From: Planctomycetota bacterium
GTDB lineage: Bacteria > Planctomycetota > SZUA-567 > H5-PLA8
DNA: 19,036 nucleotides
Reading direction: 5' to 3'
Assembly: GCA_045863855.1 (NCBI GenBank)
Contig: BTVV01000118.1
Span: forward strand, 1 to 19,036
Below the pieces are notes generated by a model, which was given only the letters and a program-made list of their open reading frames with translations, ran no database searches and had not been told where the DNA came from. The first letter of the stretch is position 1. Each line of letters opens with the position of its first letter. Both the position numbers and the translations under genes were made by a program. Of the stretch, positions 1 to 19,036 are shown piece by piece.

Positions 1-1
1 C

Positions 2-1200: not shown

Positions 1201-1202
1201 GG

Positions 1203-1237
1203 ATGAAATTCCATTCATTTTATTGAATTCAAATTCA
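1203..1237. promoter_or_regulatory. Putative tandem TetR operator, two TGAA-N6-TTCA palindromes
   Basis: ATGAAattccaTTCAT (1203-1218) and TGAATTcaAATTCA (1224-1237), 20 bp apart, directly upstream of tetR. Confidence 0.6.
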
Positions 1238-1291
1238 TATAAGTGAGCCGTGGCGTAACGTCAACTGGAAAATGGGCTGGACCCAAGACCG

Positions 1292-1789: not shown

Positions 1790-1990
1790 AAATTTCAGCA
1801 GCGACAGCGTCTACCATTATTATCGGTGCCGTGGCTCCATGAACGGGAGCACGGCATGCTCCAACAAGACGAAGGTCCGTGGCGAGGAAATTGAAGAACT
1901 GGTAATCAACCTACTTCTTAAGGAGGTCTTGTCGGAAAAGTTCATCTTGGACATTGCAGAGGAAATTGTTGCATTGCATCAGGGGGTGTT
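1790..1990 (+). pseudogene. Fragment of a large serine recombinase (second half of the zinc ribbon plus following helix)
   Basis: YHYYRCRGSMNGSTACSNKTKVRGEEIEELVINLLLKEVLS fits the YYxC...C...v...xIExxV pattern. No catalytic domain. Locally AT-richer. Confidence 0.65.
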
Positions 1991-2046
1991 TGCGGTTTCG
2001 GCGCTGAGGCATTCCTTGTACGGGAACGGGCCGTTTCAGAGGCCAA

Positions 2047-2955: not shown

Positions 2956-3101
2956 GCGCGTCCGATCAGTGCAAAAAAGTGCAAAGCAGGCCGGTATTTT
3001 GACACCAATCCATCCACGGCGGCCCTTTCGCTCAGTGTATGAATAGAGCGATGAACAGTCTGCAGGGACGAACACACTGTATTCCAAAAAGGAGATGCCA
3101 C

Positions 3102-3272
3102 ATGCACCCGCGAGTTCACCCCCGTTTGGTATGTCTGTGGCTGGTGGGAGCGCTGAGCGCGCAAGCGGGGGAGCCGGCAGCCGCGCCGGCCGAGTGGCCG
3201 TGCTTCATGGGTCCGGCGCGAAATGGTGTCGTGGAAGGCGGACCGAAACTGCTGCAGACTTGGCCGAAGGGG
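3102..3272 (+). pseudogene. N-terminal stub of a secreted PQQ-like (BamB-type) beta-propeller protein
   Basis: RBS AAGGAG at 3089, signal peptide (LVCLWLVGALSAQA), then EWPCFMGPARNG...PKLLQTWPKG. Homology stops there. Confidence 0.7.
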
Positions 3273-3544
3273 GCGGCGCCGACCTGGAACTGGGCGCGGA
3301 ATGGCTGCACAACCGGCTGGACCTGATCTGCAGCCTGCCCGATTGGGGTAATCCCTCGCGCGATCCTGCCTGGGACCGCGCGCGCATGTGGCGCGCGCTG
3401 ATTTCCTTATTCCGGCGTAAGTCCTTGACCTCGGACGGGGTGCTGGACCCGATTGTGGATTTGGACGAAGCGCCCGGCATGTTTATGTCCATCTACCGCA
3501 ACGCGATTCCGTCCGTGAAAATGGGAATCCGCTTTGATCGATAA
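3272..3544 (+). pseudogene. C-terminal stub of a zinc-binding alcohol dehydrogenase-like (MDR) protein
   Basis: GGADLELGAEWLHNRL...WGNPSRDPAWDRAR...LDPIVDLDEA...VKMGIRF* resembles MDR C-termini. It has no N-terminus and is in a different frame from the preceding stub. Confidence 0.55.
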
Positions 3545-3568
3545 GCGCTACGGGAGAAAGGTAAGGCC

Positions 3569-3740
3569 ATGAACGAGTACAATTTGGCACTCGGGCCTAG
3601 GACTTGTTGCGTCGCTCGCGCGCGCCGGACAACCCCTCCGTCGAGACCGACTGGCCGCAGTGGCGGGACGGACCGGCGCGCGACGGCGTTGCGCGAACAA
3701 GTCCGAAACTGCTCGACCAGTGGCCTGGCAGGCGGCGCGC
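3569..3740 (+). pseudogene. Second PQQ-like beta-propeller N-terminal stub, frameshifted
   Basis: RBS and ATG at 3569. With single-base frameshifts it reads MNEYNLALG/LGLVASLARA/DNPSVETDWPQWRDGPARDGVARTSPKLLDQWP/AGG. Confidence 0.6.
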
Positions 3741-4046
3741 TCAGGCGAGGCGGTTTTCCGCTTGGGCGGCAGTCTTTGCTGCTTGGGCGGGGCAGACTAT
3801 CCCGGCACGGACGCGGGCAAGGTCGCCCATTATCTGCTGCGTTGCGGCTTTTGACCATCTTCCCTGGCACTCGTCATGGGTGGGCCGTGGCGTTGGCGCT
3901 CCGATATGCCGGAGAAGCCCCTGGAGACATCGCCAAAGACCAATTCCTCGGGGCTTGGGCAGCGAAGGATCCAGAAGGCCGCCGTAAAATATGCGGAAAG
4001 CCCTGAGCACCTGATAAAAGACGATCTTCATTACAAGGAGTTACGC

Positions 4047-6026
4047 ATGTACTTCGTCCCCCTGGGTGTGACGCGTCTGATCAGCCTCGGTGTAGGCCTG
4101 TGCCTGCTGCCGCTTGTACTGCACGGGAGCGAACAGCCATACCCGATGCAGGATTGGGTTCCGCCGACAGCCTCGCAATGGACCAGCCTGCGCCATCACC
4201 TGCTGGACGCATACGGGCAGGCCCGCAAGAAAGACCCCAAGCTCGGTGGTGGGGTTCTCCAGGCACCGATGGTCAGCGTTGATCGGACCAATGGTTGGCT
4301 CTATGCCTTTCCCCAATATGGTGCACTGTGGCTCAGCACGGATCGCGGCCAGACGTTCGAATGGCTCAATCGAGAGGTTCGGGATTGGGGGTTCAATGAA
4401 TCGCCCACCAGCATGTGCATCAGCCCCGAGGGGTCGAAACTGCGGATCTTCTCGTCACAGCGCAGCGGCTTCTCCTTGGACGGGGGCAAGACCTGGAAGT
4501 ACATGAATTTTACGATCAATTTTGGCTTCGAAGACGGTCTCATCAACTGGGACGGGAAAGGCGACGGCAAGATGATCGTGGCCCGGTCGCATACCTGGCC
4601 GCATGCGCGGATGTGGTTCAGCCGCGATGCCGGAGCAAGCTTCACCGAATGTTCGCCAGAGATCACCAAGCAGATCAACACGCAGACCATGGCCTTGATG
4701 GATGACGACGTCCTGCTGTTCTGCCTAGATGCCCAGTACCCGTACTCCAAGCTGCTGCGCACCGAGGACTATGGCAAGACGGTCGTAGAAGTGCCGATAC
4801 CGGTACGCGGCGCTGACGGGAAGATGGCTCCGGGAACATTCCAGGGCTTGAGCCGGCGTTTCAAAGACAAGGTCTATTGGCTGCACAGCACCGGCGTCTA
4901 CACCAGTTCGGACAAGGGGCTGACGTGGACCGTGGTGGGCAAGCCCTTCCCGTCCAAAGCCAAAGGGGCCAAGGAGTGGGGGCCGGTACGCTCAGGGCCG
5001 CTGTTCGGCAAGGACGAGAACCACATGCTGGTGCTCTTCCTTAACACGGTCGTGGAGACGCTGGATGGCGGTCAGACTTGGCATGTGCTGGCCGAACTGC
5101 CCGTCTCTCTCACCTATCAACCGTGGGGCCACTCCTTCGCCTACGATCCGCTCGGGGATGTGCTGTACTGTAACAATCGACACCACCACGGCGGGCCAAA
5201 CCTGTTCGGTCGTCTGGCGCTCAAGCGTTGGGGCGATGTCGAGAAGGTGCTGCCGTCTGCGCCAGCGGGCATCCAGGCGAACATCGTGCGTGGTGGAAAC
5301 TGTGCTGAGCTCAGTTGGAAACCGTCCAGCGACGCCAGCGGCATCTACGCCTACTACGTCTATGTCGACGGCACCTTGCAGTACCGCACCGAGCAGCCTG
5401 GCATCGTCTTGTCGAACCTTGCCTGGGGTCAGGAACTGAAGGTCGGCGTGCAGGCCGTGGACGCCTGGCAGAACCGCTCGGCGGTGGTCGAGGTTGCCGT
5501 TCGTCTGGGTGCCAAACCCGCCCAGGCCACGCTCTTACAGGACCTGCCGAGGGCCACCGCCACCTTCGACGGTGCGCCGATGGACATCGTGACCGCGGCG
5601 GCAGACAAGCCCGGACAATCGTTGGCCTTCCGGATGGACGGCTACGAGCCGAATCCGGTCCCCGAATATGCGCGCAGGAAAATGCCGTATGGACTCGGTG
5701 TACAGGTCAAGAAGACCCACAAGCAGGGAGTGCTCGAGTACGCCCTCGATCAGAAATACACGCGCCTCCTGCTGGAGGCCGGCATGTACGACTCCCAGTG
5801 GGAGAAGGTGCGGTTGAGGATCCTGCTGGATGGCAAGGAGGTCTACGCGACCAAGCCGGCTAGTTACGGGACGTTGACGGATCACATCGGACGGAAGCCG
5901 GAGCCCGTCGATCTCGATCTCGCCAACGTGAAGACACTTCGGTTCGAAATAACGGTTACCGACGCGAAGCATTTGGGACTGGATATGGTGGTCTTGGGCA
6001 ACGCCATGCTGTTTGCCCGCGAGTGA
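4047..6026 (+). CDS. Secreted BNR/Asp-box beta-propeller + FN3 + NPCBM/NEW2 (CBM51-like) protein, putative glycan-active enzyme
   Basis: AAGGAG precedes ATG 4047 (the ORF-track start at 3876 is likely too long). Signal peptide; six Asp-boxes (STDRGQTF, SLDGGKTW, SRDAGASF, TEDYGKTV, SSDKGLTW, TLDGGQTW); FN3 (PSAP...LSWKPSSD...YYVYVDG...AVDAWQNRS); NPCBM (GLGV...YALDQKYTRL...LDGKEVY...VDLDLANVKTLRF...GNAML). Confidence 0.85.
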   Translation: MYFVPLGVTRLISLGVGLCLLPLVLHGSEQPYPMQDWVPPTASQWTSLRHHLLDAYGQARKKDPKLGGGVLQAPMVSVDRTNGWLYAFPQYGALWLSTDRGQTFEWLNREVRDWGFNESPTSMCISPEGSKLRIFSSQRSGFSLDGGKTWKYMNFTINFGFEDGLINWDGKGDGKMIVARSHTWPHARMWFSRDAGASFTECSPEITKQINTQTMALMDDDVLLFCLDAQYPYSKLLRTEDYGKTVVEVPIPVRGADGKMAPGTFQGLSRRFKDKVYWLHSTGVYTSSDKGLTWTVVGKPFPSKAKGAKEWGPVRSGPLFGKDENHMLVLFLNTVVETLDGGQTWHVLAELPVSLTYQPWGHSFAYDPLGDVLYCNNRHHHGGPNLFGRLALKRWGDVEKVLPSAPAGIQANIVRGGNCAELSWKPSSDASGIYAYYVYVDGTLQYRTEQPGIVLSNLAWGQELKVGVQAVDAWQNRSAVVEVAVRLGAKPAQATLLQDLPRATATFDGAPMDIVTAAADKPGQSLAFRMDGYEPNPVPEYARRKMPYGLGVQVKKTHKQGVLEYALDQKYTRLLLEAGMYDSQWEKVRLRILLDGKEVYATKPASYGTLTDHIGRKPEPVDLDLANVKTLRFEITVTDAKHLGLDMVVLGNAMLFARE

Positions 6027-6034
6027 CCGGAACC

Positions 6035-6200
6035 ATGTCTCGCCGCATCATCGCACTGTTGGTCATCGCCTCCATCCTGACGGCCGCCGAGCTTCGCTTG
6101 GATGCCATCGTCGGAGATGGGATGGTGTTGCAGCGCGGTTCGCCAGCTCGCGTGTGGGGGGCCGCCGATCGCGGATCGACCGTTACCGTGAAACTGGCTG
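6035..6200 (+). pseudogene. N-terminal stub of a sialate O-acetylesterase-family protein
   Basis: Signal peptide followed by ELRLDAIVGDGMVLQRGSPARVWGAADRGSTVTV, the family's characteristic N-terminal motif. Unrelated sequence follows. Confidence 0.75.
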
Positions 6201-6414
6201 CCGACCTCCGGCAAAGTAGGGGGCGCGCGCGTGGCGCAACTTGCCTTTGCCTCTGGCGTAAACGCCGCCTCGGAGAGTTGCAGGTTCACGCGGGAGGCCA
6301 GTGCCTGGGCTTTGTCGCGGTCAGCGCGGGCGATCGCCAGGCGGCAGGCGATGCGCCGGGTTGTCACAATGAGTGTGCTCTGGAAACATGGAAAACATGG
6401 GAGAGAGTAAGCAA

Positions 6415-8628
6415 ATGAAAACAGCCTTGATCCGGATCGTGTTCTGCTCGGAGAAATTCTGTGCTTGCATGCTGGCGGCGACGATCCTTCTCGCGCTGGC
6501 CGCGTTCGAAGCGCGGGCGGCAGAGCAGGGCGACGATCCGTACGAGAAGTACGTCAAGACATCGAAGGACTTCAAACGCGTCAAGCAGGACAAGGCTTGG
6601 GCGCTCAAGGCGTGGCCAAGCTGGGTCTACATGCCCTGGCAGGCGCCTCTGGGGACCGACGACAAGGCGGCGGAGTACTACAAGAAGATCGGCTGGAACG
6701 GCCAGACCATCGACTTTCGCGGCGGCACGGGGCGTCTCGGCTGGATCGAAAAACACAAGTTGCGTTTCTATGGCGACCATGCGGCCGAGAAGGGGTTTCT
6801 CCATCTTTGGGAAGGCGGTAGCAAACACCCGGAGATTTTCAATCCCGGGATGCGCGTTAAGCCGGTCAACCAGGGCATGAAGACGCAGCTTGAAGGGTTC
6901 ATTAAAGGGCACATCAAATCAGTGAAAGCCTCGCCGAATCGCCTGGCCTACATGTTGGATGACGAAATAAGCTGGGGCCATTTCTCTAAGCCGTGCATGT
7001 GGCAGATCACGGACGATCAGTCGGCGTTTCCCGCCTGGCTGAAGGAAATCTACGGCGAAGCCAATGCGCCGAAATATAACGGCTGGATGTCGTACGACAG
7101 CCTGCTGGGCAGATTGTCGGGATGGAAGGTCAAGGATTTCGATGCCAGCCAGTTGATGGACCAGTGGACGTTCAACGACTCGTACTGGAACAACTTCCTC
7201 GGCGACCTGGTCGAGTACGCCAATTCGATCGATCCGGACATTCCCTGCGGTTATGAAGGCGGTCAGGGAGCCAACCCGTTCGGCGGTTATGACGTGGCTA
7301 AATACATGCGCAAAATCCAGGTTCTGGAAAGCTACGGTGGCGGCGGCATCATCCGTTCCTTCAATCCGTACAATGCGCTGCCGATCGTCACCACCCATTT
7401 CTTCACGAGTGTGGACGACACCGTCTGGCAGTGCTGGTACAACGTGGCCCACGGCAACAGAGGGCAGATCGGCTGGGTGGAGAAGGTGCCCGACGACCAG
7501 GCAGTCGCGCGCATTGCCCCAAACTACCATGATGCCGCCGAAAAGATTGGTCCGCTGATGACGGGCGCTGAATGGATTCATGACGGCGTCGCGGTGTATT
7601 ACAGCCACGCTTCGATTCAACTGGGCTGGATCATGGATGCCCAGGCCCACGGCAAAACCTGGCGCAATCGCAACTCCGACGGCATGGGCGGCCAGAACAT
7701 GTGCCGCGAAGCCTGGGAGAACATGCTGAAGGACGATGGCCTGCAGTACAATTTCATCAGCTATGCCGATGTCATCCAGGACGGTATTCCCAAGGAATAC
7801 AAGGTGTTGATTCTGCCGAACATCCTCTGCCTCTCCGACGCCGAAGCGAAGAAGATCAAGGAATTCTGCAAGGCGGGCGGCACGGTCATCGCCGACTACA
7901 TGCCCGGTCTCTGGGACCAGCACGGCAAGGGACGCCCCACCGGCGGCGTGCTGGATGACATGTTCGGCGTCAAGCACGACCCCAACCTGGGCACGGCCGA
8001 TGTGTTCCAGGGCGGCGCGAACGGCAATCTTTGGGCGGAGACGAATCAGGACGCGCATTTCAACCAGTCAGGCGAGAAGTTGCTGAGCGACAATAAGTGC
8101 ATCCGGGACAAGTCCGGCTACAACAAGGCTGTGCGCAACATGGAGGTGTGCACGGTCGGCAAGTTTGGCAACGGCACGACGGTGCTGCTGAACCTCTCCC
8201 CGCAGTGGTACAGCGCCTATCGCGGCCGGCCGTATGCCGAGGCGGCGGCGAAGCGCGATGTATTCACGCAATACGTCAAGAAGGCCGTTGGCCCGCGCTG
8301 GGTCCAACTCGAGGGCGCAGGCGACAAGGAAAACGGGTACGAAATCACCTATTGGTCGCAGGGCGAGCGAACGATTCTGTTCCTCTGCTACAAGCCGGGG
8401 ATCACGGCAGGAACGATGGGCGGCGGCAATTCAGTGGGCCTTAAGAAAGACAAGATTCCCGTGACGCTGTCGTTCGCTCAACCGGTCAAGGAAGTCCGCG
8501 ATGAACGCGCCGGCAAGGACCTCGGCAGCGGCAAGCAGTTCAAGTTTGACTGGACCATGAACGAGGCGGTTGTCCTGTCGTTTGCCGGCGCGCCCGGCCG
8601 GGCTCCCGCCCCGAGCCCCGCGAAATAG
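6415..8628 (+). CDS. Secreted GH42-like protein with beta-galactosidase trimerisation (GATase1-like) domain
   Basis: VAVYYSHASIQ...LQYNFISY...YKVLILPNILCLSDAEAKKIKEFCKAGGTVIADYMPGLWDQHGK; a possible TIM-barrel acid/base in LDDEISWG. Signal peptide; GGAGAG precedes ATG 6415. Substrate unknown. Confidence 0.8.
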   Translation: MKTALIRIVFCSEKFCACMLAATILLALAAFEARAAEQGDDPYEKYVKTSKDFKRVKQDKAWALKAWPSWVYMPWQAPLGTDDKAAEYYKKIGWNGQTIDFRGGTGRLGWIEKHKLRFYGDHAAEKGFLHLWEGGSKHPEIFNPGMRVKPVNQGMKTQLEGFIKGHIKSVKASPNRLAYMLDDEISWGHFSKPCMWQITDDQSAFPAWLKEIYGEANAPKYNGWMSYDSLLGRLSGWKVKDFDASQLMDQWTFNDSYWNNFLGDLVEYANSIDPDIPCGYEGGQGANPFGGYDVAKYMRKIQVLESYGGGGIIRSFNPYNALPIVTTHFFTSVDDTVWQCWYNVAHGNRGQIGWVEKVPDDQAVARIAPNYHDAAEKIGPLMTGAEWIHDGVAVYYSHASIQLGWIMDAQAHGKTWRNRNSDGMGGQNMCREAWENMLKDDGLQYNFISYADVIQDGIPKEYKVLILPNILCLSDAEAKKIKEFCKAGGTVIADYMPGLWDQHGKGRPTGGVLDDMFGVKHDPNLGTADVFQGGANGNLWAETNQDAHFNQSGEKLLSDNKCIRDKSGYNKAVRNMEVCTVGKFGNGTTVLLNLSPQWYSAYRGRPYAEAAAKRDVFTQYVKKAVGPRWVQLEGAGDKENGYEITYWSQGERTILFLCYKPGITAGTMGGGNSVGLKKDKIPVTLSFAQPVKEVRDERAGKDLGSGKQFKFDWTMNEAVVLSFAGAPGRAPAPSPAK

Positions 8629-8679
8629 GGAGATTCCGCGGCGCCGATTCGGCTCGCAGGCGAAAAGGGATTGTATTCT

Positions 8680-8909
8680 ACCGTCTGTATTAAAAATGTT
8701 CGCTCGACGTAAACAGGTGAAGTGCGAGATGATTGAATGATTTTCGGGCCGCTCAAGATCGCTCGCTATGTGGCCATAGTAAGGTTGAATGGTTGCCGTT
8801 TAAGGTGTTGTTTGGTTCGGCCAAGCTCTTTGACAATCGCAGAGGCGTAACAGCGCATACGCGGGTCGGCGTGACCGCTTGCTCCAGGTACGACATCGGA
8901 CGCGCAAGA
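8680..8909. repeat. Copy A of a conserved non-coding element end (3' flank of the rve_3 transposase)
   Basis: 8680-8841 aligns with 12822-12981 with two 1-nt gaps, about 123/162 identities by hand. Similarity starts abruptly at ACCGT-N7-AAAAATG. Confidence 0.85.
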
Positions 8910-9155
8910 CTACGCCGATTCGCGGTAGTAATGTTTGAGCCAGCCGCCGAGGAACTCCTGACATCGAATTTCGCTGGCCTTAGGTGGATCGCCCGGTGGT
9001 GATGTGGCCTGCGGTGAGAGCGGTACGTTGCCCAAGCCCTGGTGCGGTCGATAGCGGTTGTAGAACTCCGCATACTCGTTCACGAGATGGTCGAGGTGAT
9101 GGACGCCGACCACGATGAAGTGGTCGAGGCATTCATTCTTGACCGAGCGGACCCA
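8910..9155 (-). mobile_element. C-terminal fragment of an 'integrase core domain' (rve_3, IS481/IS3-like DDE) transposase
   Basis: WVRSVKNECLDHFIVVGVHHLDHLVNEYAEFYNRYRPHQGLGN...IRCQEFLGGWLKHYYRESA*. It is cut just after the position of the catalytic 'AER', so no DDE residues remain. Confidence 0.85.
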
Positions 9156-9288
9156 TTTTATTCGACGGTCCCTTTCTGCCCTAATTCGCCTCGCTCCGAG
9201 GTTTTGCGTAGGTCGGAAGGAAATTACTCCACCTCTTGGGCCTGCGTGACCGGCGTCGCAAACAGAACGCGGAGCGCGCCCGGTCCGT

Positions 9289-10554
9289 TCACTTGGTGAC
9301 GAACGCCTGGTGCCAGCTGCTCCAGATACTCCAGCGTCCCGCATCGTCCTGCTGCCGGCTGCGGCAGAAGTAGGTTTTGCCCGACTCAAGTTTCGTCGCG
9401 TCCTTGAGTGGACCCACGAAAGCGCCGTGCGCGGCATCCGCCGTCACGGTCAGGCCCGCGCCTTCAACCGGTTTCGACAGCCAGACAGGCCGGACGTAGG
9501 CGTCCTCGCCTTTCTGATGTCCCCACTCGTCGGGGAGGCGCTTGGATATTTGCTCGGCACCGCCGCCGGCTCCCTCCGCGCGTTCGGCCAGTTGAACCTC
9601 CCAGGCCGCCTGCTTGGCGCCCTCCGCTCCACGGAACGGCGTCTTATGCAGCACGGGATTGGCCGCCGCGACGAGCGGGCCGATGGGCTTGGTGCTCACC
9701 ACAAAGTCGTCCAGCCAGCGGACCTGATCGACGGGACTGCCCTTGTTCCAGTAGGCCTCCAGGAAGACCGCGTTGATGCCCTGGCTGGTGTAGGTCCCGC
9801 GAAAGTTGAGGTTCTTGCGGTCGCACTGGAGTAACCCGTCGATCCACAGATGCATGCTGCCGTCCTTCTGTCCCGGGGTGTTGAGTTTCGCATGGGCCTC
9901 GACGCAAACCCAACGTCCGGTCTCTCCCGTGGCGTGGATCGGAAACGGACCGGAGGGCTTGTTGCCGAGCCACTTGAGATTCTCGAAGTCGTTGTACTTG
10001 GTGGTGACGACGCGCCCGTCCTTCACCCCGCTGGCCGGGTCGAGCGTCAATCCTTCGCCGGCCGACCAGACGTGCCCGATCATGGCCTGGGTCCACTGGC
10101 CGGAAGTAAAGGAAGTGCAGCGGCTAAGTTTGTTCGGCCCACCGCCCATCCAGCCGTACTGGTGCTTCACGTAGACGCGCCACCAAAGCTCCTCGAATTT
10201 CTCTCCCTTCCGGATGGGCGCGCCGAAGGGGCAGTCGCCGAAGACCAGCTTCCGCCCGCCGATGCCCTGCTTGCCCTTGGGATAAAACATCCGTAGCGCT
10301 TGTCCGCTGGCGCCGAGGAACACGTCCTCTACGCGCACATTCTCCTTGTCGCGGTGCGCGTACTCGTGGTACTTCTGCTGCACGGACTCGTCGCCGTCGA
10401 AGTTGTCGTACCAGATAACCGCGGGATCGTTCTTCCAGGACTGCTCTGCCGCCAGATCTACACTGTCGATCCTGGGCACCTCGGGCTCGTCTGAGGCAAA
10501 CGCTCCAAACGCCACCCACATGACCGCTCCGAGCAACACACCTCGCGAGAACAT
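9289..10554 (-). CDS. Secreted PL14-like/ConA beta-jelly-roll protein with C-terminal FN3-like domain
   Basis: Signal peptide; WYDNFD, ELWWRVYVK...GW...NKL, GRWVCVEAHAKLNTPGQKDGSMHLWIDG...NLNFR, WLDDFVVSTKPIG; FN3-like QAAWEVQL...LESGKTYFCRSRQQDDAGRWSIWS. RBS GGAGGG. Confidence 0.7.
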   Translation of the reverse strand: MFSRGVLLGAVMWVAFGAFASDEPEVPRIDSVDLAAEQSWKNDPAVIWYDNFDGDESVQQKYHEYAHRDKENVRVEDVFLGASGQALRMFYPKGKQGIGGRKLVFGDCPFGAPIRKGEKFEELWWRVYVKHQYGWMGGGPNKLSRCTSFTSGQWTQAMIGHVWSAGEGLTLDPASGVKDGRVVTTKYNDFENLKWLGNKPSGPFPIHATGETGRWVCVEAHAKLNTPGQKDGSMHLWIDGLLQCDRKNLNFRGTYTSQGINAVFLEAYWNKGSPVDQVRWLDDFVVSTKPIGPLVAAANPVLHKTPFRGAEGAKQAAWEVQLAERAEGAGGGAEQISKRLPDEWGHQKGEDAYVRPVWLSKPVEGAGLTVTADAAHGAFVGPLKDATKLESGKTYFCRSRQQDDAGRWSIWSSWHQAFVTK

Positions 10555-10587
10555 AATGCCCCTCCCTTTTGATTGGACCGGCTTCGC

Positions 10588-11688
10588 TCACAAGGCCCGC
10601 GCGGTGGTCTCGCGCAGGCTCAATTCGAACGGCAGCACCTGCCGCACCGGGCGCTCTAGCGTGCCGCACACCATGGCCACGGCCGCGCGCGCGGCCGCCC
10701 GGCCCACGTCCACCGTCAGTACCTTCAGGCCCGAGAACTGCGGATCGGTATGCGTGCCGATGTGCCCGTCGTCGAACGAAACTAAGCTGAAATCCCGCGG
10801 CACGGAAAAGCCCCTCTCGCGCGCAAGCCTGAGCACCGTCTTCGCCTGGTTAGTCTGCGACGTGAACAAAGCGCTCGGCCGGTCCGGAGCGTCGAAGAAC
10901 TCCTCACAGCGTCCGGCGTAGATCACACGGCCCTTCAGGCGCCCGCCTTTGACCTTTGCCAGAGCTTCTCGGAATGCCGCGATCTTCAGCGCCGGGATGG
11001 TCGTCCGCGCGGCGTGTTTTTCATCCTCGGTCGTCAGGTACGCGACGGAAGCATGCCCCAGCCGCGCAAGCTTCACGAGCACTTGCTCCACGCCCCCGAA
11101 CAGGTCGCCGCCCACGTAATCCCAACCGCGGTCCGTGAACGCGTAGCCGACCTGCAGCGCCGAGGCGTGCGCGTGCAGCGCCTCCCAGACCTCCAGACGT
11201 GACTCCGGCAGCAGCAGGATCACGTCCAGTGGCGTACTTCTCACGTCGTCGAGCAGTTTCGCGAAATGGTCCCCTGGTTGCACGCTCAGGCCAAAGGTCG
11301 TCGACAGACAGCCCTCAACTTGCAGCACCTCGTGAATGCCGGTTAACAGGTCCGTGGTGAGCGGGTCCTGGGTCGGGTCGGTGTACTTGAGGAACACGAT
11401 GCCGACGTGCGCGGTGGCCGTACGCGCGGCGTCATGGATGCGGCGCGCGTTCAATACGAACGTCCCCCGCCCCACGTGGCGGTTGATACGCCCCTCGTCT
11501 TCCAGCAGTTCCAAAGCCGCGCGAACCGTCTTGCGGCTCACTCCGAAACGCGCCATCAGCGTCCGCTCGGGCGGCAGGCGTGAACCGGCCGGCCATACTC
11601 CGTCTACCATCTCGCGGTCCAAGATCTCCCGCACCTGGATGGGCAGCGGATAGGGGCTCGTCGCGTCGATCTTCGTTTTTCTGGACAT
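10588..11688 (-). CDS. GntR-HTH / LacI-type sugar-binding domain regulator (AraR-like)
   Basis: WPAGSRLPPERTLMARFGVSRKTVRAALELLEDEGRINRHVGRGTFV plus LGHASVAYL...VPRDFSLVSFDD. ATG 11688 preferred over 11718. Confidence 0.92.
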   Translation of the reverse strand: MSRKTKIDATSPYPLPIQVREILDREMVDGVWPAGSRLPPERTLMARFGVSRKTVRAALELLEDEGRINRHVGRGTFVLNARRIHDAARTATAHVGIVFLKYTDPTQDPLTTDLLTGIHEVLQVEGCLSTTFGLSVQPGDHFAKLLDDVRSTPLDVILLLPESRLEVWEALHAHASALQVGYAFTDRGWDYVGGDLFGGVEQVLVKLARLGHASVAYLTTEDEKHAARTTIPALKIAAFREALAKVKGGRLKGRVIYAGRCEEFFDAPDRPSALFTSQTNQAKTVLRLARERGFSVPRDFSLVSFDDGHIGTHTDPQFSGLKVLTVDVGRAAARAAVAMVCGTLERPVRQVLPFELSLRETTARAL

Positions 11689-11732
11689 CCTAGAGATTCG
11701 CTTTACCCAGGAAACCAATAGGAGACCAATCC

Positions 11733-11756
11733 ATTCTTGGTGTATACACCTAGAAT
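11733..11756. promoter_or_regulatory. Putative GntR-family operator in a divergent promoter
   Basis: ATTCTtGGTGTATACACCtAGAAT, a 24-bp palindrome with one mismatched pair; GT..TA..AC core typical of GntR-HTH sites. Confidence 0.7.
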
Positions 11757-11822
11757 TGGACTTGAGCCACGCTTTTTTGTCTTTACCGGCCCCGAAAGCG
11801 GGGTTCGTGGGGAGCGGTCAAT

Positions 11823-12854
11823 ATGCCCAACACACACCGACCTTGGACGATCAAGGACGCCGGCCCGAACCTACTGCGCGCCAGCCTGGAGGGGCCGGCT
11901 TTCCACGCCCCGCCGTTCCCGGTCGGCGTGGAGGACCACGCCCACCCGCGCCTGGCGCGGTTACGCCGAGAGTACCGCTTGCCGGCCGTGCTGCGCGGTG
12001 CGCAGAGCGAGTTCGAACGGCTCTTGCGGCTGCGCCACTGGGTACATACCCGCTGGCCCATCGACAACGCACAGAACTTCCAGGGTGACGCCTTTGCGAT
12101 CCTGGAACACGCCAAGACCGGCGCGGGCTTCCACTGCCACCATGCGATGGTCGTGCAGCACGCGGTGCTGGCCGCCTGTGGCTTCGTGGTGCGGGACCTC
12201 GGCGTCGACCGCGACTTCCGCCTGCTCGGACGCAGCAGCCACCACGGCGTCAACGAGGTCTGGTCGAACACCTTCGCCAAGTGGGTCGTCCTCGACGCGA
12301 AATACGATATCCACTTCGCGCGCCGTGGCGTCCCGCTCTCGGCCGCTGAACTCCACGCGGCCGCACGCTCGGGCCGGGTGCGCGGAATCGTAAAGGTCCG
12401 GGGCTTGCGCCGCCGCAAGACCGCGATGGAGAATCCCCGCAAGGTAGAGGGCAGCGGGCTGGGCTACTGGTGGGTCAGCTACCACATGCGGACCGATACC
12501 TTTACGCACCCGCACTTCAGCGGCGGAGATAGGCTGCTGGTCTGGGACAACCTATACTTCCGGCGCAGCACCTGGTACCGCAACGCTGGCCCAGCGCGGG
12601 TCAAGCACTGGGCCTATGCAAACCAAGCGTTCGTCCGCGTGCGCGCCCAGGAAGGCATCGACTGGACGCCGGGCGTGCCCGGGCTGGTCGCCCGGCAGCG
12701 CGCGCCGCACGTACTCGACGTCCGCCTGCGCAGCGCGACACCCAACTTCAAAACCTACCGCGTACGCTTCGACGGCGGTTCCTGGCGTAACTGCCCAAGC
12801 GGGCGTCTACGATGGAAACTCACCGTATCTCTCAAAAATGATCGCGCGGCGTAA
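11823..12854 (+). CDS. Transglutaminase-like (Cys-His-Asp) protein, C-terminus replaced by element-end sequence
   Basis: LRHWVHTRW...GFHCHHA...HHGVNEVWSNTFAKWVVLD triad pattern. The last 10 residues (TVSLKNDRAA) are read from repeat copy B, which starts at 12822. Confidence 0.8.
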   Translation: MPNTHRPWTIKDAGPNLLRASLEGPAFHAPPFPVGVEDHAHPRLARLRREYRLPAVLRGAQSEFERLLRLRHWVHTRWPIDNAQNFQGDAFAILEHAKTGAGFHCHHAMVVQHAVLAACGFVVRDLGVDRDFRLLGRSSHHGVNEVWSNTFAKWVVLDAKYDIHFARRGVPLSAAELHAAARSGRVRGIVKVRGLRRRKTAMENPRKVEGSGLGYWWVSYHMRTDTFTHPHFSGGDRLLVWDNLYFRRSTWYRNAGPARVKHWAYANQAFVRVRAQEGIDWTPGVPGLVARQRAPHVLDVRLRSATPNFKTYRVRFDGGSWRNCPSGRLRWKLTVSLKNDRAA

Positions 12855-13031
12855 ACGGGCGATGTTCGAGGGGGTTGAACGATTTTGAGCCGCTCAAGAT
12901 CGCCCCCTATGAGGCCAAAGTAAGGATGGCTGGGCGTAGTTTAAGACGAAGTTCGGTCGGCGATGCTCATTAACAGTCGCAATAGGGTGAGCGTACGCAA
13001 GAGTTCGAGAGAGCATTGGTCGCAGGATGAG
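12822..13031. repeat. Copy B of the conserved non-coding element end
   Basis: Direct repeat of 8680-8841. Weaker similarity continues to about 13027, where an IS3 end interrupts it. Confidence 0.85.
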
Positions 13032-13206
13032 TGAGGTGCCCCCCGAAAACTGATCCAGGCGCAGAGTGAGAACTCGGTAGCCTGATCGCAGAAAGGGGGC
13101 GGTTATGTCCAAGAAGCGGTTCATGCCGGAGCAGATCATTTCCAAACTTCGAGAGGCGGAGGTGGAGCTGGCGAAGGGGCAGCCCATAGGTCTTGTTTGT
13201 CAGAAG
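13032..13206 (+). mobile_element. IS3-family left end with truncated OrfA (13105-13206)
   Basis: IRL-like TGAGGTGCCCCCCGAAAACTGATCCA, an RBS, then MSKKRFMPEQIISKLREAEVELAKGQPIGLVCQK, which stops before the HTH recognition helix. Confidence 0.85.
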
Positions 13207-13290
13207 AGCGGAAGTACAGGCCAGCAACAACAAACACAAATCCAGTATTCGCGCTATGGCCGTAGTTCTCCTCATTCTAATGTGAATCAT
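13204..13290 (-). pseudogene. Signal-peptide-only stub of a secreted-protein gene following the sulfatase
   Basis: MIHIRMRRTTAIARILDLCLLLLACTSA runs head-on into the IS3 fragment. Confidence 0.45.
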
Positions 13291-13325
13291 TCTGCCGCCC
13301 CATCCACTGCCGTGGCGCCGGATTT

Positions 13326-14804
13326 TCAAATCTCACGCGGCACAAACTCCGAGCGAGGAACCAGCCGGTCGATGCGCAGTTCGTAGCCGCGTTTAAAGAT
13401 CTCCTGCGCGAGCGTCCCATCCGCGCTCATTTCGCGCCGTAGTATGGCTTGGTCGTTCTTTGCGCGCAGATCCACTCCCTGTGGTGAGCAAAGCGCGCAT
13501 AACCACGCACGCATGCGGGAAATTGTGGCGCGTGTTCGCGGTGCAGCCGATTCTTCGACGACTAAATCATGCAGCTCTTGTGAATCTGCCTGGAGATCAA
13601 ACAGCATGGGGCGCGCGCCCACGGCCTCGACGTACTTCATGCGTCCGTCCGAGACGGCGAAGACACCCGCCGGGATGCCGTTGGCGTGATACTCACTTAG
13701 CACATATTCGTTGCGGACCGCGTCGGGATGCCCGCGCAATTGAGGCAGCAGCGAGATTCCACGGAAATCCTCAGTGCGTTCGATCCCTAAGGCGTCTACA
13801 ACAGTGGGAAAGATGTCCAGCAGCGATACGGGCGATTGCTCGACAACACCGCGCTGCAGCCCCGGCCCCATGATCACCAGCGGGATGCGCAGTGCGTCCT
13901 CGTACATATTCATCTTGCCCCACATGCGGTGTGCGCGGCAGTTCTCGCCGTGGTCGGACGCACAGATGACGCACGTTTCGTCAAGAATGCCCGCTGCTTC
14001 CAGCGCCTCAAGAACCCGTTTGATGTTCCGGTCGACCAATTCGCAATGCGCCAGATACGCCGCATAGCAACGCCGCAGCAGTTCGTCGTCGCTGTACATC
14101 CCGCACGAATGGTGCGCAAAGCTTTGATGATAGGGGTGCAACTTCTCGAAGGGTTCGAAGTACTTCGGTTCCAGGTCTTCAATTCTTACGCGCGCCTGCC
14201 ACTTCTCCCAAAGTTGCGGAGGGCATGGCCAGGCGGGATGAGGCTGGACAAAGTTTACATTGAGTACCCAGGGCCGGTCTGTCGGGCGCTCGCTCAACAG
14301 CCATTCCGCCGCCCGTTGCGCGACCTTGTAATCATTGAAATCCTCTTCCTTGAGATCGGTGCGCGGACCAGAGCGTTGCATGGATTGATATTCAGACCAG
14401 CGCGGCGGATTGTCCGGCTCGTGCCGAAATAGTCCGTGGATATCGCGGCTGCTTCGGTGCCCCGCGAGCAGTTCCTGGCCAATGCCGTGATCGACACCTG
14501 GCTGAAAATCCAGTTTGCCGATCGTCGTAAGCTGAACCGAGCGTTCGCGCAGAAAGTGCGGCCAGCCCCGCATACAGCCGTTCCAAGGCAGTGCGTTATC
14601 CCAACAGCCATTTTCGAAAACATAGCGTCCGGTAAATAGCGCAGCTCGCGCAGGAACGCAGAGCGGACTGTTGCAGTAGGCATACTGGAAACGAGTGCCC
14701 CGTGCGGCGATAGAATCAAGGGCTGGCGTTTCGGCCAACCGATGGCCGTAACAACCCGTGAAAAATGGATTGTGCTGATCAGTTAAGATGAAAACCGTAT
14801 TCAT
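13326..14804 (-). CDS. Formylglycine-dependent sulfatase (S1, choline-sulfatase-like)
   Basis: MNTVFILTDQH, YCNSPLCVPARAALFTG (CxPxR), QPHP, SDHGE...MWGK, MYED, LFDL. GAGGAG precedes ATG 14804. No signal peptide. Confidence 0.93.
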   Translation of the reverse strand: MNTVFILTDQHNPFFTGCYGHRLAETPALDSIAARGTRFQYAYCNSPLCVPARAALFTGRYVFENGCWDNALPWNGCMRGWPHFLRERSVQLTTIGKLDFQPGVDHGIGQELLAGHRSSRDIHGLFRHEPDNPPRWSEYQSMQRSGPRTDLKEEDFNDYKVAQRAAEWLLSERPTDRPWVLNVNFVQPHPAWPCPPQLWEKWQARVRIEDLEPKYFEPFEKLHPYHQSFAHHSCGMYSDDELLRRCYAAYLAHCELVDRNIKRVLEALEAAGILDETCVICASDHGENCRAHRMWGKMNMYEDALRIPLVIMGPGLQRGVVEQSPVSLLDIFPTVVDALGIERTEDFRGISLLPQLRGHPDAVRNEYVLSEYHANGIPAGVFAVSDGRMKYVEAVGARPMLFDLQADSQELHDLVVEESAAPRTRATISRMRAWLCALCSPQGVDLRAKNDQAILRREMSADGTLAQEIFKRGYELRIDRLVPRSEFVPREI

Positions 14805-14898
14805 GTCCGCTCCTCGGCCACTGGACTGTAGGCTATAAGCCAGCACTTTTCATGCCCGCGGTTCTTTCTGATCCAAGCCCCGTTGCCGGCTACGAGTG

Positions 14899-15714
14899 TT
14901 ACGGGCGCGCCTTTAGATCAGTTTTTTGCTCTGACTTCTCCATTGCAATCTTCTCCTTTACGATCGTCTCCTTGGCGATCGCATATAGAGCCTTTCCCAA
15001 GTCGTCGAATCTGGGCTCCTTGTCGCTCGACCACTTGGATATTTGGAACGTCTGGCCAGCGGCGTTTTTTAATACGATACTCGGCCGTCCCTCACCAGGC
15101 ATGCCTGGGCGCACCGGGATTTTGAGGCCAATCAGGTCGTTCTGGATACAGAGGGTCCTGAACGCCTGCGCCTGTTCCTGGGTGAGTTGCAGGCTTGTCT
15201 TCGTCTCGCGGCGCTTTGGAGGCAAGCCAACGATTCGTATCAAACACGCGCCGTCGCCCTGAAGATCAATGTCCACACCGCCGTGGAGGGGATGCACATC
15301 GCGGAGTTGAATCAAGCACTTTGGCCAATCGGCATCCGGTCCGACGAACTTTGCGGTTGAGAGTTGCCCAATCAATCGCTTCATGCGTATAGTGCGTTCG
15401 GGGTCGCCGCCGTGAGCTTGCAGCGCGGCTTCCAAGATGACGATAGCGCCAGGACCAGCGTCGAGAATCCTCTTCGACGCCGCTTCCCGCACGGCGAACT
15501 CCTCATGTTCCAAGTCTTTTAGCGCCGTTTCGACTGCCTTCTTTTGCTCGGCGGTCAGGTCGGGCAATGGTTTCGCGACAATTTTCTTATCTTCGGACGT
15601 CACTTCTGTGTTCAGCTCTTTGGCCTTGACCGATCCTTCGACGGGTGTCTCGGCCTCGCCCGCCAGGGCGTGACACGCCAACAACAGAATCAGCGCACCC
15701 ATCGCTGCTTTCAT
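14899..15714 (-). CDS. Secreted hypothetical protein with a HEAT-like helical motif
   Basis: Signal peptide (ALILLLACHALA); LEHEEFAVREAASKRILDAGPGAIVILEAAL...DPERTIRMKRLI, a motif common in planctomycete proteins. RBS GGAGG. Confidence 0.75.
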   Translation of the reverse strand: MKAAMGALILLLACHALAGEAETPVEGSVKAKELNTEVTSEDKKIVAKPLPDLTAEQKKAVETALKDLEHEEFAVREAASKRILDAGPGAIVILEAALQAHGGDPERTIRMKRLIGQLSTAKFVGPDADWPKCLIQLRDVHPLHGGVDIDLQGDGACLIRIVGLPPKRRETKTSLQLTQEQAQAFRTLCIQNDLIGLKIPVRPGMPGEGRPSIVLKNAAGQTFQISKWSSDKEPRFDDLGKALYAIAKETIVKEKIAMEKSEQKTDLKARP

Positions 15715-15744
15715 GTCGCCTCCCCCAGTCCCAATCCCAAATCC

Positions 15745-16899
15745 TTAGCGCGTCTCGGTGTCCATTGAACCTGAACAGCAGGGTAAGACTGTATCGCCAA
15801 GACAGATTGTACCTCGCAAAAGGATTCGCTTGGGAGCACTCCGGTCACCACCAATCCTGGACATCAGGCACTCAATAGCCTTGCGGCCCAGCCCCACCCA
15901 GTCGGCCTCTATTCCGCCAAGCAAGAGTTGGTTACTCCCAACTCGTTTATTGGTTGCGTAGGAAACTATGCTCAACGGCGAAGGAACATCAATGCGCAGA
16001 TCCCTTGCAGCCTCGGCAAAGCATTGGGCGACTCTAGGATCGATTGCGATGACTGCGGTGGGCCGAACTTGATCTTGAAACCATTCCTTTAAGATCCGCT
16101 TGGCGTCGGAGAATCGCCACTCTTTCTCAAGCCGAGCGACAGTTTGCCACTTATCGCAGGTGAACACACCGTTCTCCCTAGCGCCATCGTCAAAGCCGCG
16201 TTTCCAATTTGGATTTAGTGACGTCAACGGTCTGTCGACAAATGCGATATGTCTGTGCCCCAAATGAGACAAAGCAGCAACCAGTGCTTTTACGTCCTCG
16301 TACGAATCCGGTTCTACGCTATCTACCACCACGCCATCGTGCGCCCAGTGATCTACAATGATCGCAGGCTTTCCCATCCGAACGATACGTTGCTGAAGTA
16401 TGGGGTCGTCAACTCCAAACAGAATCGCGCCTCCCAGTTGTCCGTCGCCTAACATTGTCTCAATGCGATCCAACTCCTCTTCAACGTTTTCCGGCCGCGC
16501 TAAAAATAGATTAAACGAGCATCCATACTGCTTTCCCCGTGCGAGCATTCCGGTGTAAATACCCGCGTATCCGGCAATAGAACCTATGGCTTCATTCCAA
16601 GAGCATCCACGGGTTGCAAAAAGACCCAGTTTCAGAGAAGTTGGGGTTGCTTGTTGGTCCGCTGGCAACACGGCATTGGCAAAGCGACGATTCAGAAAAG
16701 TTCCCTTTCCCCAACGTCTTACTATGTGGCCCTCCTTGACCAACTGCGCTAACGCCTTGCGCACGGTCGCCACGCACGTGTTTGCCCGATTCGCCAACTC
16801 TCGCTCTGGTGGCAGTTGCCCCCAAGAATCGGCAAGAAGCACCGTCTGCTGGCGAAGCCACGCTAATGTTGTATCAAATACGTCTGGAGGCCTAGACAT
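15745..16899 (-). CDS. GntR-HTH / LacI-type sugar-binding domain regulator
   Basis: QLPPERELANRANTCVATVRKALAQLVKEGHIVRRWGKGTFL plus LGHRHIAFV...RPTAVIA...IDVPSPLSIVSY. Visibly lower GC than the 9.3-12.8 kb block. Confidence 0.9.
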   Translation of the reverse strand: MSRPPDVFDTTLAWLRQQTVLLADSWGQLPPERELANRANTCVATVRKALAQLVKEGHIVRRWGKGTFLNRRFANAVLPADQQATPTSLKLGLFATRGCSWNEAIGSIAGYAGIYTGMLARGKQYGCSFNLFLARPENVEEELDRIETMLGDGQLGGAILFGVDDPILQQRIVRMGKPAIIVDHWAHDGVVVDSVEPDSYEDVKALVAALSHLGHRHIAFVDRPLTSLNPNWKRGFDDGARENGVFTCDKWQTVARLEKEWRFSDAKRILKEWFQDQVRPTAVIAIDPRVAQCFAEAARDLRIDVPSPLSIVSYATNKRVGSNQLLLGGIEADWVGLGRKAIECLMSRIGGDRSAPKRILLRGTICLGDTVLPCCSGSMDTETR

Positions 16900-17251
16900 A
16901 ACACCATCCTTTCAATGCCACCGGAATCCGAATCCCCAGTCTCGCCAGTAAATAATAATTGAATCTTAAGATTTATCAACATCTAGTTTGGTAATGGTGT
17001 ATATAAGTCTAATGATTCATTAATACCTTGGCCGCTGCGGAGGTGAATCGGAGAAAGACCTCATGGCGCAGAGGAAGGAGATTCTTGTGAATGACTTGTC
17101 GTTCATGGCATTCTTTGGATTGGGGCTGGCTTGGGCGGGCGTTTACTTTGTCGAAGATAAGGCATCCGATAAAACGCTGGTGGACTCCGCAACGAACGCG
17201 CCCATTTACTACACTCCGCGAGCGAAGCCAAATATTTGGAACCTCCTAATA

Positions 17252-17953
17252 ATGATGATCGCGCGAGGAGGAATGCTGGTCATGGCTCTGCTCGGGTTGA
17301 GCCTGCCCGCTTGGGGCGGCGAGGGCGCACCGGCGGCGCCGCTGTTCGAGGACAATTTCACCAAGGGTTTGGAGCACTGGGTGATTGAGAAGTGGGGCAA
17401 AGATAAGGTCGAAGCCAAGGTGGAAGACGGCAAGCTGTGCGTAGAAACGGGCGCCGGGAAGGACGGAGTGCAGGTCTGGCTCAAGCAGGAGCTGCCGAAG
17501 AATTTCATCTTCGAATATGACTTCATCCCACAGTCGCAGAGCGGGTTCTTCCTGCTCTTTTTCTGCCAGAAGGGGACCCAGGGTGAAGACATCCTGGCGG
17601 ATGCCTTGCTGAACGACCGCAAACACCAGACGCTCTTCATGAAATACACCCTGGCGCGGAACGGATATCACATCAGCTATCGCCGCAACGAAGAGGCCAA
17701 CTGTAACCTGCGCAAAAACGCGGGAAAGAACCTTCTTAAGCAGCAGGAGCTCGACCATCCGTTGCCCAAGGACAAAAAGGTGCATGTGAGACTCACGAAG
17801 ACTATGGGGCAGATCAAGCTGGAGGTGGACGGCGAGGTGTTTATGGAATTCGAGGACAGGGACCAGCCGTATGCGGGCGGGCGGGTCGGCTTTCGGCAGG
17901 TGTACGAATCCGCCGCGCAGTACAGCCAGGTAAAGCTCACCGAGATCAAGTGA
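17252..17953 (+). CDS. Secreted DUF1961 (YesU-like) ConA/jelly-roll protein
   Basis: LFEDNF...VWLKQELP...GFFLLFF...YHISYRRN...CNLRKN...GGRVGFRQ. The frame is open from 17063, but the signal peptide next to the domain starts at about 17252-17282. Start uncertain. Confidence 0.75.
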   Translation: MMIARGGMLVMALLGLSLPAWGGEGAPAAPLFEDNFTKGLEHWVIEKWGKDKVEAKVEDGKLCVETGAGKDGVQVWLKQELPKNFIFEYDFIPQSQSGFFLLFFCQKGTQGEDILADALLNDRKHQTLFMKYTLARNGYHISYRRNEEANCNLRKNAGKNLLKQQELDHPLPKDKKVHVRLTKTMGQIKLEVDGEVFMEFEDRDQPYAGGRVGFRQVYESAAQYSQVKLTEIK

Positions 17954-18098
17954 GGACGCACTTCTAAAACGAATCATGCCTCATGACGAACGAATCTTCC
18001 GGGATCGCCTTGCTTTTTCTCTGCCTTTGCGTTGCTGATCCGGCAAGTATTTTCAGAAAAACTCCGCTGCAAGCTCGGCAGTAAAGGGACATTCTTCC

Positions 18099-19036
18099 AT
18101 GAAACAGCCCAACATCCTCTTCATCTTCACCGACCAACAATCGGCCAACATGATGAGTTGCGCCGGCAATACGGACCTGCAAACGCCTGCGATGGATTCG
18201 CTGGCCGCGCGTGGCACGCGATTCGAACGAGCTTATTGCGCCAATCCCTTGTGCGTCCCTTCGCGCGGTGTCATGTCAACGGGTCTTTACCCTCATCAGA
18301 CCGGTATCACAATCAACTACGGTTTTAGGAAGGAGCCGAAGCAAGCCGTCAGCTCAACCTGGATGGGAGCGATTTTAAGGGATGGCGGCTACCGAACCGC
18401 CTATCGGGGGAAATGGCATCAGCCGATTGCTCCCGCCCAAGTAGAAACGCACGGCTTTGAATTAGCGCACGAGGAAACATGGGATCCGGAGATTCCAGAT
18501 CTGAGCGCCGCCTTTTTTCAGGAGAAGCATTCCAAACCATTTCTGTTTGTGGTCTCGATCTCGAATCCCCATAGAATTTGCGAGGCCGCAAGGGATCTTG
18601 CGCTCCCCATCCCCGACCGTAAGGAACTTCTCAGAGACAATCTTGGCTTAATTCCGGGGCCTGAAGCGTGTCCAAGACTTCCTCCCAACTTCGAGATACC
18701 AGATGGAGAACCTGATGTTTTGCGCTTAATCCAACGGAAACACCCGAGAGCGTACCCCACCCTCGGCTGGAGTGAAGAGCTCTGGCGCCAGTATCGATGG
18801 TGCTACGCGCGCTTTACAGAGAAGGCTGATGCCTTGGTGGGATCCATCCTGAAGGACTTGCGCGCGTCTGGATTGGAGAAAAACACGGTTGTCATTTTCT
18901 CGTCCGACCACGGCGACGGAAACGGCGCGCATCGCTGGAATCAGAAAACGTGCCTCTACGAAGAAGCCGTGCGCGTGCCGTTTATCATCGCAGACCTTCG
19001 CGACGACGTGCGGGGCGCCGTTGACGATTCCCACCT
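18099..19036 (+). CDS. Formylglycine-dependent sulfatase (S1), runs off the window edge
   Basis: Not in the ORF track; translated by hand: MKQPNILFIFTDQQ...AYCANPLCVPSRG...GGYRTAYRGKWH...NPH...FSSDHGDG...WNQK...YEEAVRVPFII. Confidence 0.93.
   Translation, partial: MKQPNILFIFTDQQSANMMSCAGNTDLQTPAMDSLAARGTRFERAYCANPLCVPSRGVMSTGLYPHQTGITINYGFRKEPKQAVSSTWMGAILRDGGYRTAYRGKWHQPIAPAQVETHGFELAHEETWDPEIPDLSAAFFQEKHSKPFLFVVSISNPHRICEAARDLALPIPDRKELLRDNLGLIPGPEACPRLPPNFEIPDGEPDVLRLIQRKHPRAYPTLGWSEELWRQYRWCYARFTEKADALVGSILKDLRASGLEKNTVVIFSSDHGDGNGAHRWNQKTCLYEEAVRVPFIIADLRDDVRGAVDDSH

Follow-up and report, generated by a model that had tools for sequence, protein, structure and literature searches.

Insertion sequences (IS) of the IS3 and IS481 families end in TGT (10.1101/2022.12.17.520857), and IS481 elements duplicate 2-15 bp of their target, mostly 6 (PMC10045372). 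IS21, Tn7 and IS1202 are described as using repeated internal transposase sites in their ends (PMC10122671, PMC10132070), IS1111 as carrying a long non-coding end downstream of its gene (PMC11208160), and the one-ended transposition of ISEcp1 and ISCR1 as pairing a fixed end with a variable second one, neighbouring DNA being carried along (PMC3316993). Here we analyse a long non-coding transposon end that occurs in two copies in a 19,036-bp stretch of DNA from a Planctomycetota bacterium (GenBank assembly GCA_045863855.1, contig BTVV01000118.1, positions 1 to 19,036 of the forward strand; hereafter the window). An earlier note had read this end as the possible source of a structured RNA, antisense to the transposase, or as a structure of single-stranded DNA. 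We consider it very probable that both repeats are the DNA ends of an IS481/IS3-like element with a DDE transposase. The best explanation as a whole is probably that they are decayed right ends which acted as double-stranded DNA and, in this genus, largely one-endedly; taken by itself, one-ended action of the right end is somewhat favoured.

The two repeats, copy A (8680-8841) and copy B (12822-12981), align over 162 columns with 75.9% identity (BLASTN, E 5e-24), and they share the sharp start that had been reported for them, identity being 45/60 just inside it and 18/60 just outside. The proposed start motif, ACCGT-N7-AAAAATG, holds in part: the CGT at 8682 and 12824 is the true terminus, but the preceding AC is not retained in other copies. 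Far from being present twice, the repeat has nine copies or fragments in this genome (profile search, E<1e-8, with three weaker matches dropped from the count), and 29 copies from five genomes could be aligned. Of 62 genomes of the class, six gave matches to a sequence-only model: nine in this genome (G000), 13 in G001, five in G002, two in G003 and one each in G006 and G037, the last of which looks like chance. Nearly all copies start at model position 2-3, equivalent to the CGT at 8682/12824, and those retaining the terminal end all begin at the equivalent of 8682 or within one base of it. With copy B as the BLAST query, 401 genomes of the phylum yielded five matches, and of these only the three in this genus are credible. 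Scans for the pattern of this end gave no match in viral contigs and six stretches in metagenomes, none of them homologous or near a transposase; a scan with the transposase protein gave one locus among genome contigs and none in viral contigs.

Copy A ties the repeat to a transposase. Its terminal inverted repeat (IR), read inward as CGT-N7-AAAAATG (8682..8699, plus strand), is the common start of the copies and stands in the same register as the family consensus CGT-N3-GT-N-C-R-AAAA; it is also the best site in the flank of A for a matrix built from five left ends, a match that alone is not significant (p 0.6). Behind it the non-coding right end extends over 228 bp (8682..8909, minus strand; about 230 bp by the earlier estimate) to a stop codon at 8910-8912, and the right end of a sister subfamily (L027) is likewise 228 bp long. 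As the earlier note had proposed, the copy continues into the 3' part of a gene for an rve_3 protein of the ECLDH type. This remnant (8910..9158, minus strand, Pfam rve_3) holds the final ~81 codons of a DDE transposase of IS481/IS3-like type, corresponds to positions 271-351 of 351 in the hidden Markov model of the family and matches the full-length relative P0001 at 49%. The 175-aa open reading frame (ORF) at 8910-9437 is a chimera, in which the remnant is fused to a 60-bp right-end fragment of the sister subfamily (9156..9215, minus strand, terminus at 9215; matching the right end of L027 at 75% over 60 bases). The unit 8682-9215 is bounded by two right ends facing opposite ways, and no target duplication was found beside it. 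To judge by its sequence, copy A is a hybrid scar composed of the right end 8682-8909, the last 81 codons and an opposed 60-bp sister right end. Copy B (12824..12981, plus strand) is a right-end remnant without transposase, in which the internal site described below has decayed (12967-12976); after ~12981 it has a weak tail at most (shuffle p 0.054), followed by another repeated IS-like end.

A and B both allow the two hairpins on which the RNA reading was built, in the form described, but the first (8699..8721, plus strand) breaks in the larger alignment. Only 76 of 134 cells are paired among the 29 copies, the pair credited with a compensatory swap forms in 6/27 copies and the inner closing pair in 7/28; the swap is a coincidence of two sequences, and the hairpin not a conserved structure. 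The second, a CGAT-N16-ATCG dyad (8738..8761), is paired in 118 of 151 cells of the same 29 copies, kept by plain identity of CGAT..ATCG and with no covariation. Its G.U pairs do favour the plus strand, as claimed (20 plus versus 1 minus in 12 copies), but they are mostly shared by descent, and the best folding window is this hairpin on the minus strand (z -1.8), not on the plus strand. The CGA..TCG dyad persists in remote homologues and is putatively a protein-binding dyad or a weak hairpin; many copies, including most of those in G001, stop before reaching it.

Tests of the end as a whole point the same way. Single-sequence folding of A and B is no better than that of shuffles (z +1.11 and -0.83), and the observed covariation score, no higher than the average of the shuffles in either alignment, is reached by 484 of 500 shuffles with 12 copies (in which the two proposed hairpins have one doubly changed cell) and by 226 of 500 with nine. 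The larger alignment thus holds no covariation above shuffles, an outcome that the earlier note itself had named as speaking against its reading. RNAalifold predicts no pairs on the copy alignment, the structure conservation index (SCI) of trimmed alignments is 0.3-0.4 (at most 0.41 in long copies on either strand, z near 0), and mutual information over the 29 copies places one canonical pair among its top 12. Both ends of an eight-copy relative in the genome G317 are equally unstructured (SCI, z near 0). An Rfam search of the window returned no match at E≤1, a search of 8500-9400 for sigma-70 promoters and terminators returned none of either, and the end has no 3-base periodicity indicative of a hidden coding frame. 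The expectation that the end is conserved beyond neutral divergence was borne out in two of four pairs of relatives (a fifth, poorly aligned pair was left out): identity in the end exceeds that at four-fold degenerate sites for L027/L043 (85.5% vs 70.5%) and L039/L051 (94% vs 78%), but the end is not better kept in L048/L051 or between A and C129a (79%, against 76% at third positions and 17/20 four-fold sites). Overall, the end appears to be under some constraint, and nothing shows RNA action. We therefore regard an antisense RNA or a single-stranded DNA fold as improbable, the persistence and pairing of the second dyad, its plus-strand wobble pairs and the better-kept ends of two pairs being the points in its favour.

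Copy A, like C129a, C257 and C133, also has an inverted IR core inside the end (TTGTCAAAGA, minus strand, 8827..8836), which we take as a putative extra transposase site. It is oriented like a left end, and the remnants B and C257 stop at this core or a little beyond it, in keeping with a ~160-bp miniature inverted-repeat transposable element (MITE) bounded by the terminal IR and this core. Such an identity is nevertheless very improbable, as the internal site has no CGT terminus and as copies A, C129a and C133 pass through it into the 3' end of the rve_3 gene. Neither are the lengths fixed: the 21 measured breakpoints lie at 51 to 365 bp, only two of them at the internal site, and the target duplication in these 21 remnants is at most 3 bp (the copies being old, it may have been lost).

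The full-length relative P0001 (G002) is a protein of 355 aa encoded by a single ORF. Residues D172, D238, D240 and E273 are shared by all 60 proteins compared, which places a DD(35)E triad in one ORF, and the AlphaFold model of P0001 (mean pLDDT 84) has IS21 IstA, retroviral integrases and TnsB as its top Foldseek matches; the model supports a transposase with an integrase-like fold. IS481 and IS3 models are the best NCBIfam matches for 52 of 52 members. P0001 itself stays below the cut-offs of both IS481 NF033577 (95.8 vs 224 bits) and IS3 NF033516 (82 vs 160 bits), and the best E among the 52 members against NF033577 is 1.9e-33. A PDB sequence search gave nothing at E≤0.01, and a profile gave one weak match. 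At E≤1e-60 the family is present in 41 of 251 genomes of the phylum, and it occurs in 98 plasmid records; its relatives carry the RefSeq name 'integrase core domain-containing protein'. Literature searches by title and abstract, with most subscription papers and ISfinder outside their coverage, revealed no account of the clade, its ends or its arrays. The element is best described as an IS481/IS3-like DDE element without a family name, the end of which would resemble an IS481/IS21-type end in its action (the family tree was built by a quick method, and the window fragment fills 23% of its columns).

Long ends with a CGT terminus are not confined to the window. In G317, eight copies have sharp breakpoints at CGT left and right, ~250 bp upstream of the start codon and ~195 bp downstream of the stop; in L088, inverted repeats matching at 19 of 20 positions stand 122 bp upstream of the start codon and 186 bp downstream of the stop. 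The five-left-end matrix finds sites in 14 of 50 3' flanks, 13 of these at 109-232 bp from the stop. Among ends picked by eye, terminal position 1 is C in 14/16 right and 8/9 left ends, with G and T mostly at positions 2-3. Ends of ~110-230 bp recur across the family with unrelated inner sequence, suggesting that the long right end is a family trait of which the inner sequence is not kept. End length is bimodal, because in some members the right IR stands at the stop or within ~35 bp of it; distant plasmid members from Streptomyces and Bradyrhizobium have TGC/TGT tips there. In L098, L116-L118, L119, L121 and L122 the stop codon lies within the right IR or a short way ahead of it. A set of 16 long ends is enriched in direct copies of the IR core (p 0.004) and marginally in inverted copies (p 0.094); in 11 family loci, sites resembling the internal core are located 20-190 bp downstream of the stop (by a pattern chosen after looking), and their placement is irregular. 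No target duplication is evident by eye in the eight G317 copies or in L088. A likeness to dif/xrs sites was considered and rejected, since a by-eye comparison with tables in PMC10132070 gave only a partial XerC-like stretch.

These features are compatible with a mechanism in which a transposase multimer would bind the AAAAA-containing IR core together with the extra cores inside the ~200-bp end and would cleave after ...ACG-3', CA-3' being the usual site. The left IR would have lost its CGT in this genus, and the right end would be transferred largely alone, because no cleavable left IR would be at hand, through one-ended transposition or adjacent deletion. The CGT terminus would thereby acquire a new DNA neighbour, in most cases a gene that reads towards it and has its stop codon shortly before the terminus. 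Joining of this kind would leave remnants of variable inner length, and A and B may be two such scars.

The asymmetry of the ends is the first line of evidence for one-ended action. In the sister subfamily, the left IR of which has no CGT, 100-bp probes detect right and left ends at 19:2 in G002 and 6:1 in G000; for the control subfamily in G317, with CGT on both sides, the ratio is ~40:42 among the matches listed (40 candidates scored for each). The genome G001 (six contigs, 88% complete), the richest in matches to this end, has no transposase at E≤0.001. At least nine of its copies have the same captured small ORF (HicB-like, we presume) after base 58; their far ends differ, and so mostly do their flanks. 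Tandem partial copies are seen among the G001 loci (L151-L177) in L168/L174 and L170. In the closed genome G317, one subfamily has ~80 matches to its left and right ends, strongly clustered on C1 at 5.48-5.91 Mb and 2.34-2.44 Mb.

Ordinary decay offers another account of the same remnants: whole elements in AT-rich island DNA would have been eroded from the left, and their position behind genes and in rows would reflect selection, or a pre-existing array of cassettes or of REP (repetitive extragenic palindromic) units, moved by RAYT/REP (RAYT, REP-associated tyrosine transposase) or by a tyrosine integrase, with the elements inserting at its joints. REP-like palindromes and RAYT-like ORFs often lie beside the remnants, the copies are 75-90% diverged and therefore old, and G317 also has many remnants. 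We judge this account possible although unlikely. Random erosion should spare both ends alike, as it does in G317, rather than leave 2 left ends to 19 right ones; nor would it be expected to produce one junction to the same captured DNA in at least nine G001 copies with different far ends and mostly different flanks. The rarity of genes starting away from the terminus (1/20 and 3/26, see below) speaks against it too, and so do the joints of the rows described below, none of eight of which (L178) has the attC-type motif RYYYAAC, and the result that none of three genomes has an integron integrase over the TIGR02249 cut-off.

The second line of evidence is the position of the ends behind genes. 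An ORF reading towards the terminus stops within -100..+75 of it at 17/20 sister-type ends in G002, 4/7 in G000 and 17/26 ends of the window type, compared with 12/42 right and 8/23 left ends in G317 (20/65) and 518 of 2000 random positions (26%); the difference from G317 has Fisher p values of 2e-5 (17/20) and 0.004 (17/26). The stop lies within 30 bp outside the terminus at 11/20 and 6/26 ends, versus 5/65 in G317 and 5% of random positions (p 2e-5 and 0.07), and genes starting away from the terminus are found at 1/20 and 3/26. These counts rest on simple ORF calling (ORFs of at least 100 codons) with related copies counted, on 23 of the 42 known G317 left ends, and on G317 sets that share a few sites. 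They carry no control for replication strand, which biases IS481 orientation in some phyla (PMC3971601).

Right ends also form rows. In L178 (G002:C1:165000-177000), eight co-oriented right ends and one partial tandem copy occupy 6.2 kb (2480-9097). Seven of the eight directly follow a single ORF with a GC content at third codon positions (GC3) of 0.42-0.52 (the host median is 0.74 in G000), one of these ORFs being Imm33-like, and a REP-like leader is shared after most ends. Shorter rows are present in L179-L181.

Some elements are associated with islands integrated at tRNA genes. Arm-like direct repeats and a tRNA 3' fragment flank, on the left, the full elements L027 and L043 as well as the gene-less minis in C13, C144, C129 and L143; those of G000 lie in the attR of tRNA islands (C13:57545-57777, C144:9596-9850 and C129:1889-2210). 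The islands concerned are of tRNA-Arg/Gly, with the element or mini inside attR. In four tRNA-Arg att copies the sequence breaks off after GGTCG at one and the same base, past which the normal attR in L143 and intact tRNAs continue (comparison of L126, L128 and L142 against L143); read inward, the break matches the right terminus at 7/10 positions. In L142 the att arm is repeated in tandem, as a 109-bp copy. Across the clade, a tRNA 13-mer lies upstream of 11/37 elements versus 18% at random, a weak excess, and arm-like repeats of 13/37 versus 0/21 in another clade and 13% at random. The two tRNA motifs of this test were chosen after looking, and a clade-wide att link is only partly supported.

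Taken together, the rows and the att sites could belong to a gene-capture device specific to the genus. A DDE transposase inside the attR arm of tRNA-integrating islands, with a dead left IR, would join its ~230-bp right end on purpose behind stop codons, the CG in the tRNA-derived att core would stand in for the left end, and integron-like rows of leader, gene and end would arise in the absence of attC and IntI, the window repeats being two capture joints. Gene capture into arrays is plausible yet unproven, and the device in this complete form we find doubtful.

Several observations weigh against the explanation by decayed, largely one-ended right ends. The right-end excess is not clade-wide, because G152, a genome of the same large clade, has three right-end matches for three transposase genes. 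Of 21 far breakpoints, 6 have CG at the end, with 2.6 expected (p ~0.04), an excess that is weak and post hoc, with GC also raised. A direct IR test is significant in only 1 of 35 elements (L088), the genome-wide scan with the IR matrix is unspecific (46 matches vs 31 in shuffles), and sites like those of integration host factor (IHF) in 39 family ends are no better than in shuffles (p 0.65), with 7-8/9 matches to the consensus at positions 29 and 120 in single copies. This exact subfamily yielded no full-length element, and G000, fragmented into 287 contigs, probably has one full sister-subfamily copy, collapsed, at the end of a contig. Beside A and B, finally, GC3 is host-like (0.80 in 6373..8628, 0.84 in 11823..12854).

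The first of these two reading frames is a glycoside-hydrolase-like gene (6373..8628, plus strand, Pfam Glyco_hydro_42M), which ends 53 bp before terminus A and is co-oriented with it. A polysaccharide-lyase-like gene (9289..10554, minus strand, Pfam Polysacc_lyase_14 just under cut-off) is co-oriented with the opposed terminus at 9215 and ends 73 bp before it, and a transglutaminase-like ORF (11823..12854, plus strand, Pfam Transglut_core just under cut-off) takes its last 31 bases from copy B. Behind copy B lies the end of another repeated IS (13032..13175, plus strand), with the start of a short, truncated ORF at 13105; it matches contigs C124 and C60, gave no Pfam or NCBIfam match, and is presumably IS3-like. 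Elsewhere the window contains ISKra4/ISLre2-like transposase remnants (below cut-off) and a recombinase zinc-ribbon domain at 1364-1894 and 1737-2228, and has the appearance of decayed island DNA with sugar-use genes. One contig of sequencing run X4 matches 8000-8679 and then goes on for 285 further letters, possibly an allele without copy A; run contigs mapped to the window gave no joint across the element. In G000, a 16-bp terminal duplication precedes the C186 copy, and several ends (G000 C186 and C129; L077) adjoin ORF remnants that we take to be RHS-core-like.

Among described elements, IS481 and IS3 come closest by protein, sharing a single ~355-aa DDE transposase with an rve_3 domain that has its best NCBIfam matches there, and short terminal IRs made of a 3-bp tip and an inner binding part. 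The termini here are CGT, not TGT, and the ends reach ~110-230 bp. We do not file the element as IS481, for which the cut-off of NF033577, TGT termini and target duplication were each tested and each found lacking; from IS3 it differs in having a single ORF instead of an orfA/orfB frameshift, CG rather than TG..CA ends and a score under the NF033516 cut-off. IS21 (IstA) and Tn7 (TnsB) provide the closest folds, and the enriched internal IR cores in long ends are a further likeness, but the termini are CG instead of CA/TGT, the internal cores are irregularly placed and the protein is shorter than the 400-500 aa of IS1202; an IstB/TnsC partner was not noticed, no search having been aimed at one. 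With IS110/IS1111 the element shares a long non-coding end downstream of its gene and the lack of a visible target duplication, and differs in a DDE rather than DEDD enzyme, in terminal IRs and in an end with no conserved RNA fold and no promoter found. An RNA role, if true, would extend RNA-assisted transposition to DDE elements, which the data do not support. The rows in L178 recall integron arrays in their single co-oriented low-GC3 ORFs with a repeat just after the stop; here that repeat is a transposon end with a REP-like leader, not attC, and no IntI passed the cut-off. The element belongs neither with bridge-RNA elements nor with MITEs or integrons. We are left with a widespread clade that has no family label, with CG termini, long ends and no visible target duplication, of which one genus appears to combine one-ended spreading with ties to gene 3' ends and attR sites; if genes are indeed captured, this would be a second route to integron-like arrays, via a transposase sensing gene ends. 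ISEcp1 is an IS1380-type DDE element and ISCR1 an HUH element, both of enzyme families other than that found here. The pattern in G001 and G002 fits these two in showing a fixed end and a variable far end, the difference being that the fixed end here lies behind stop codons and is stacked in rows.

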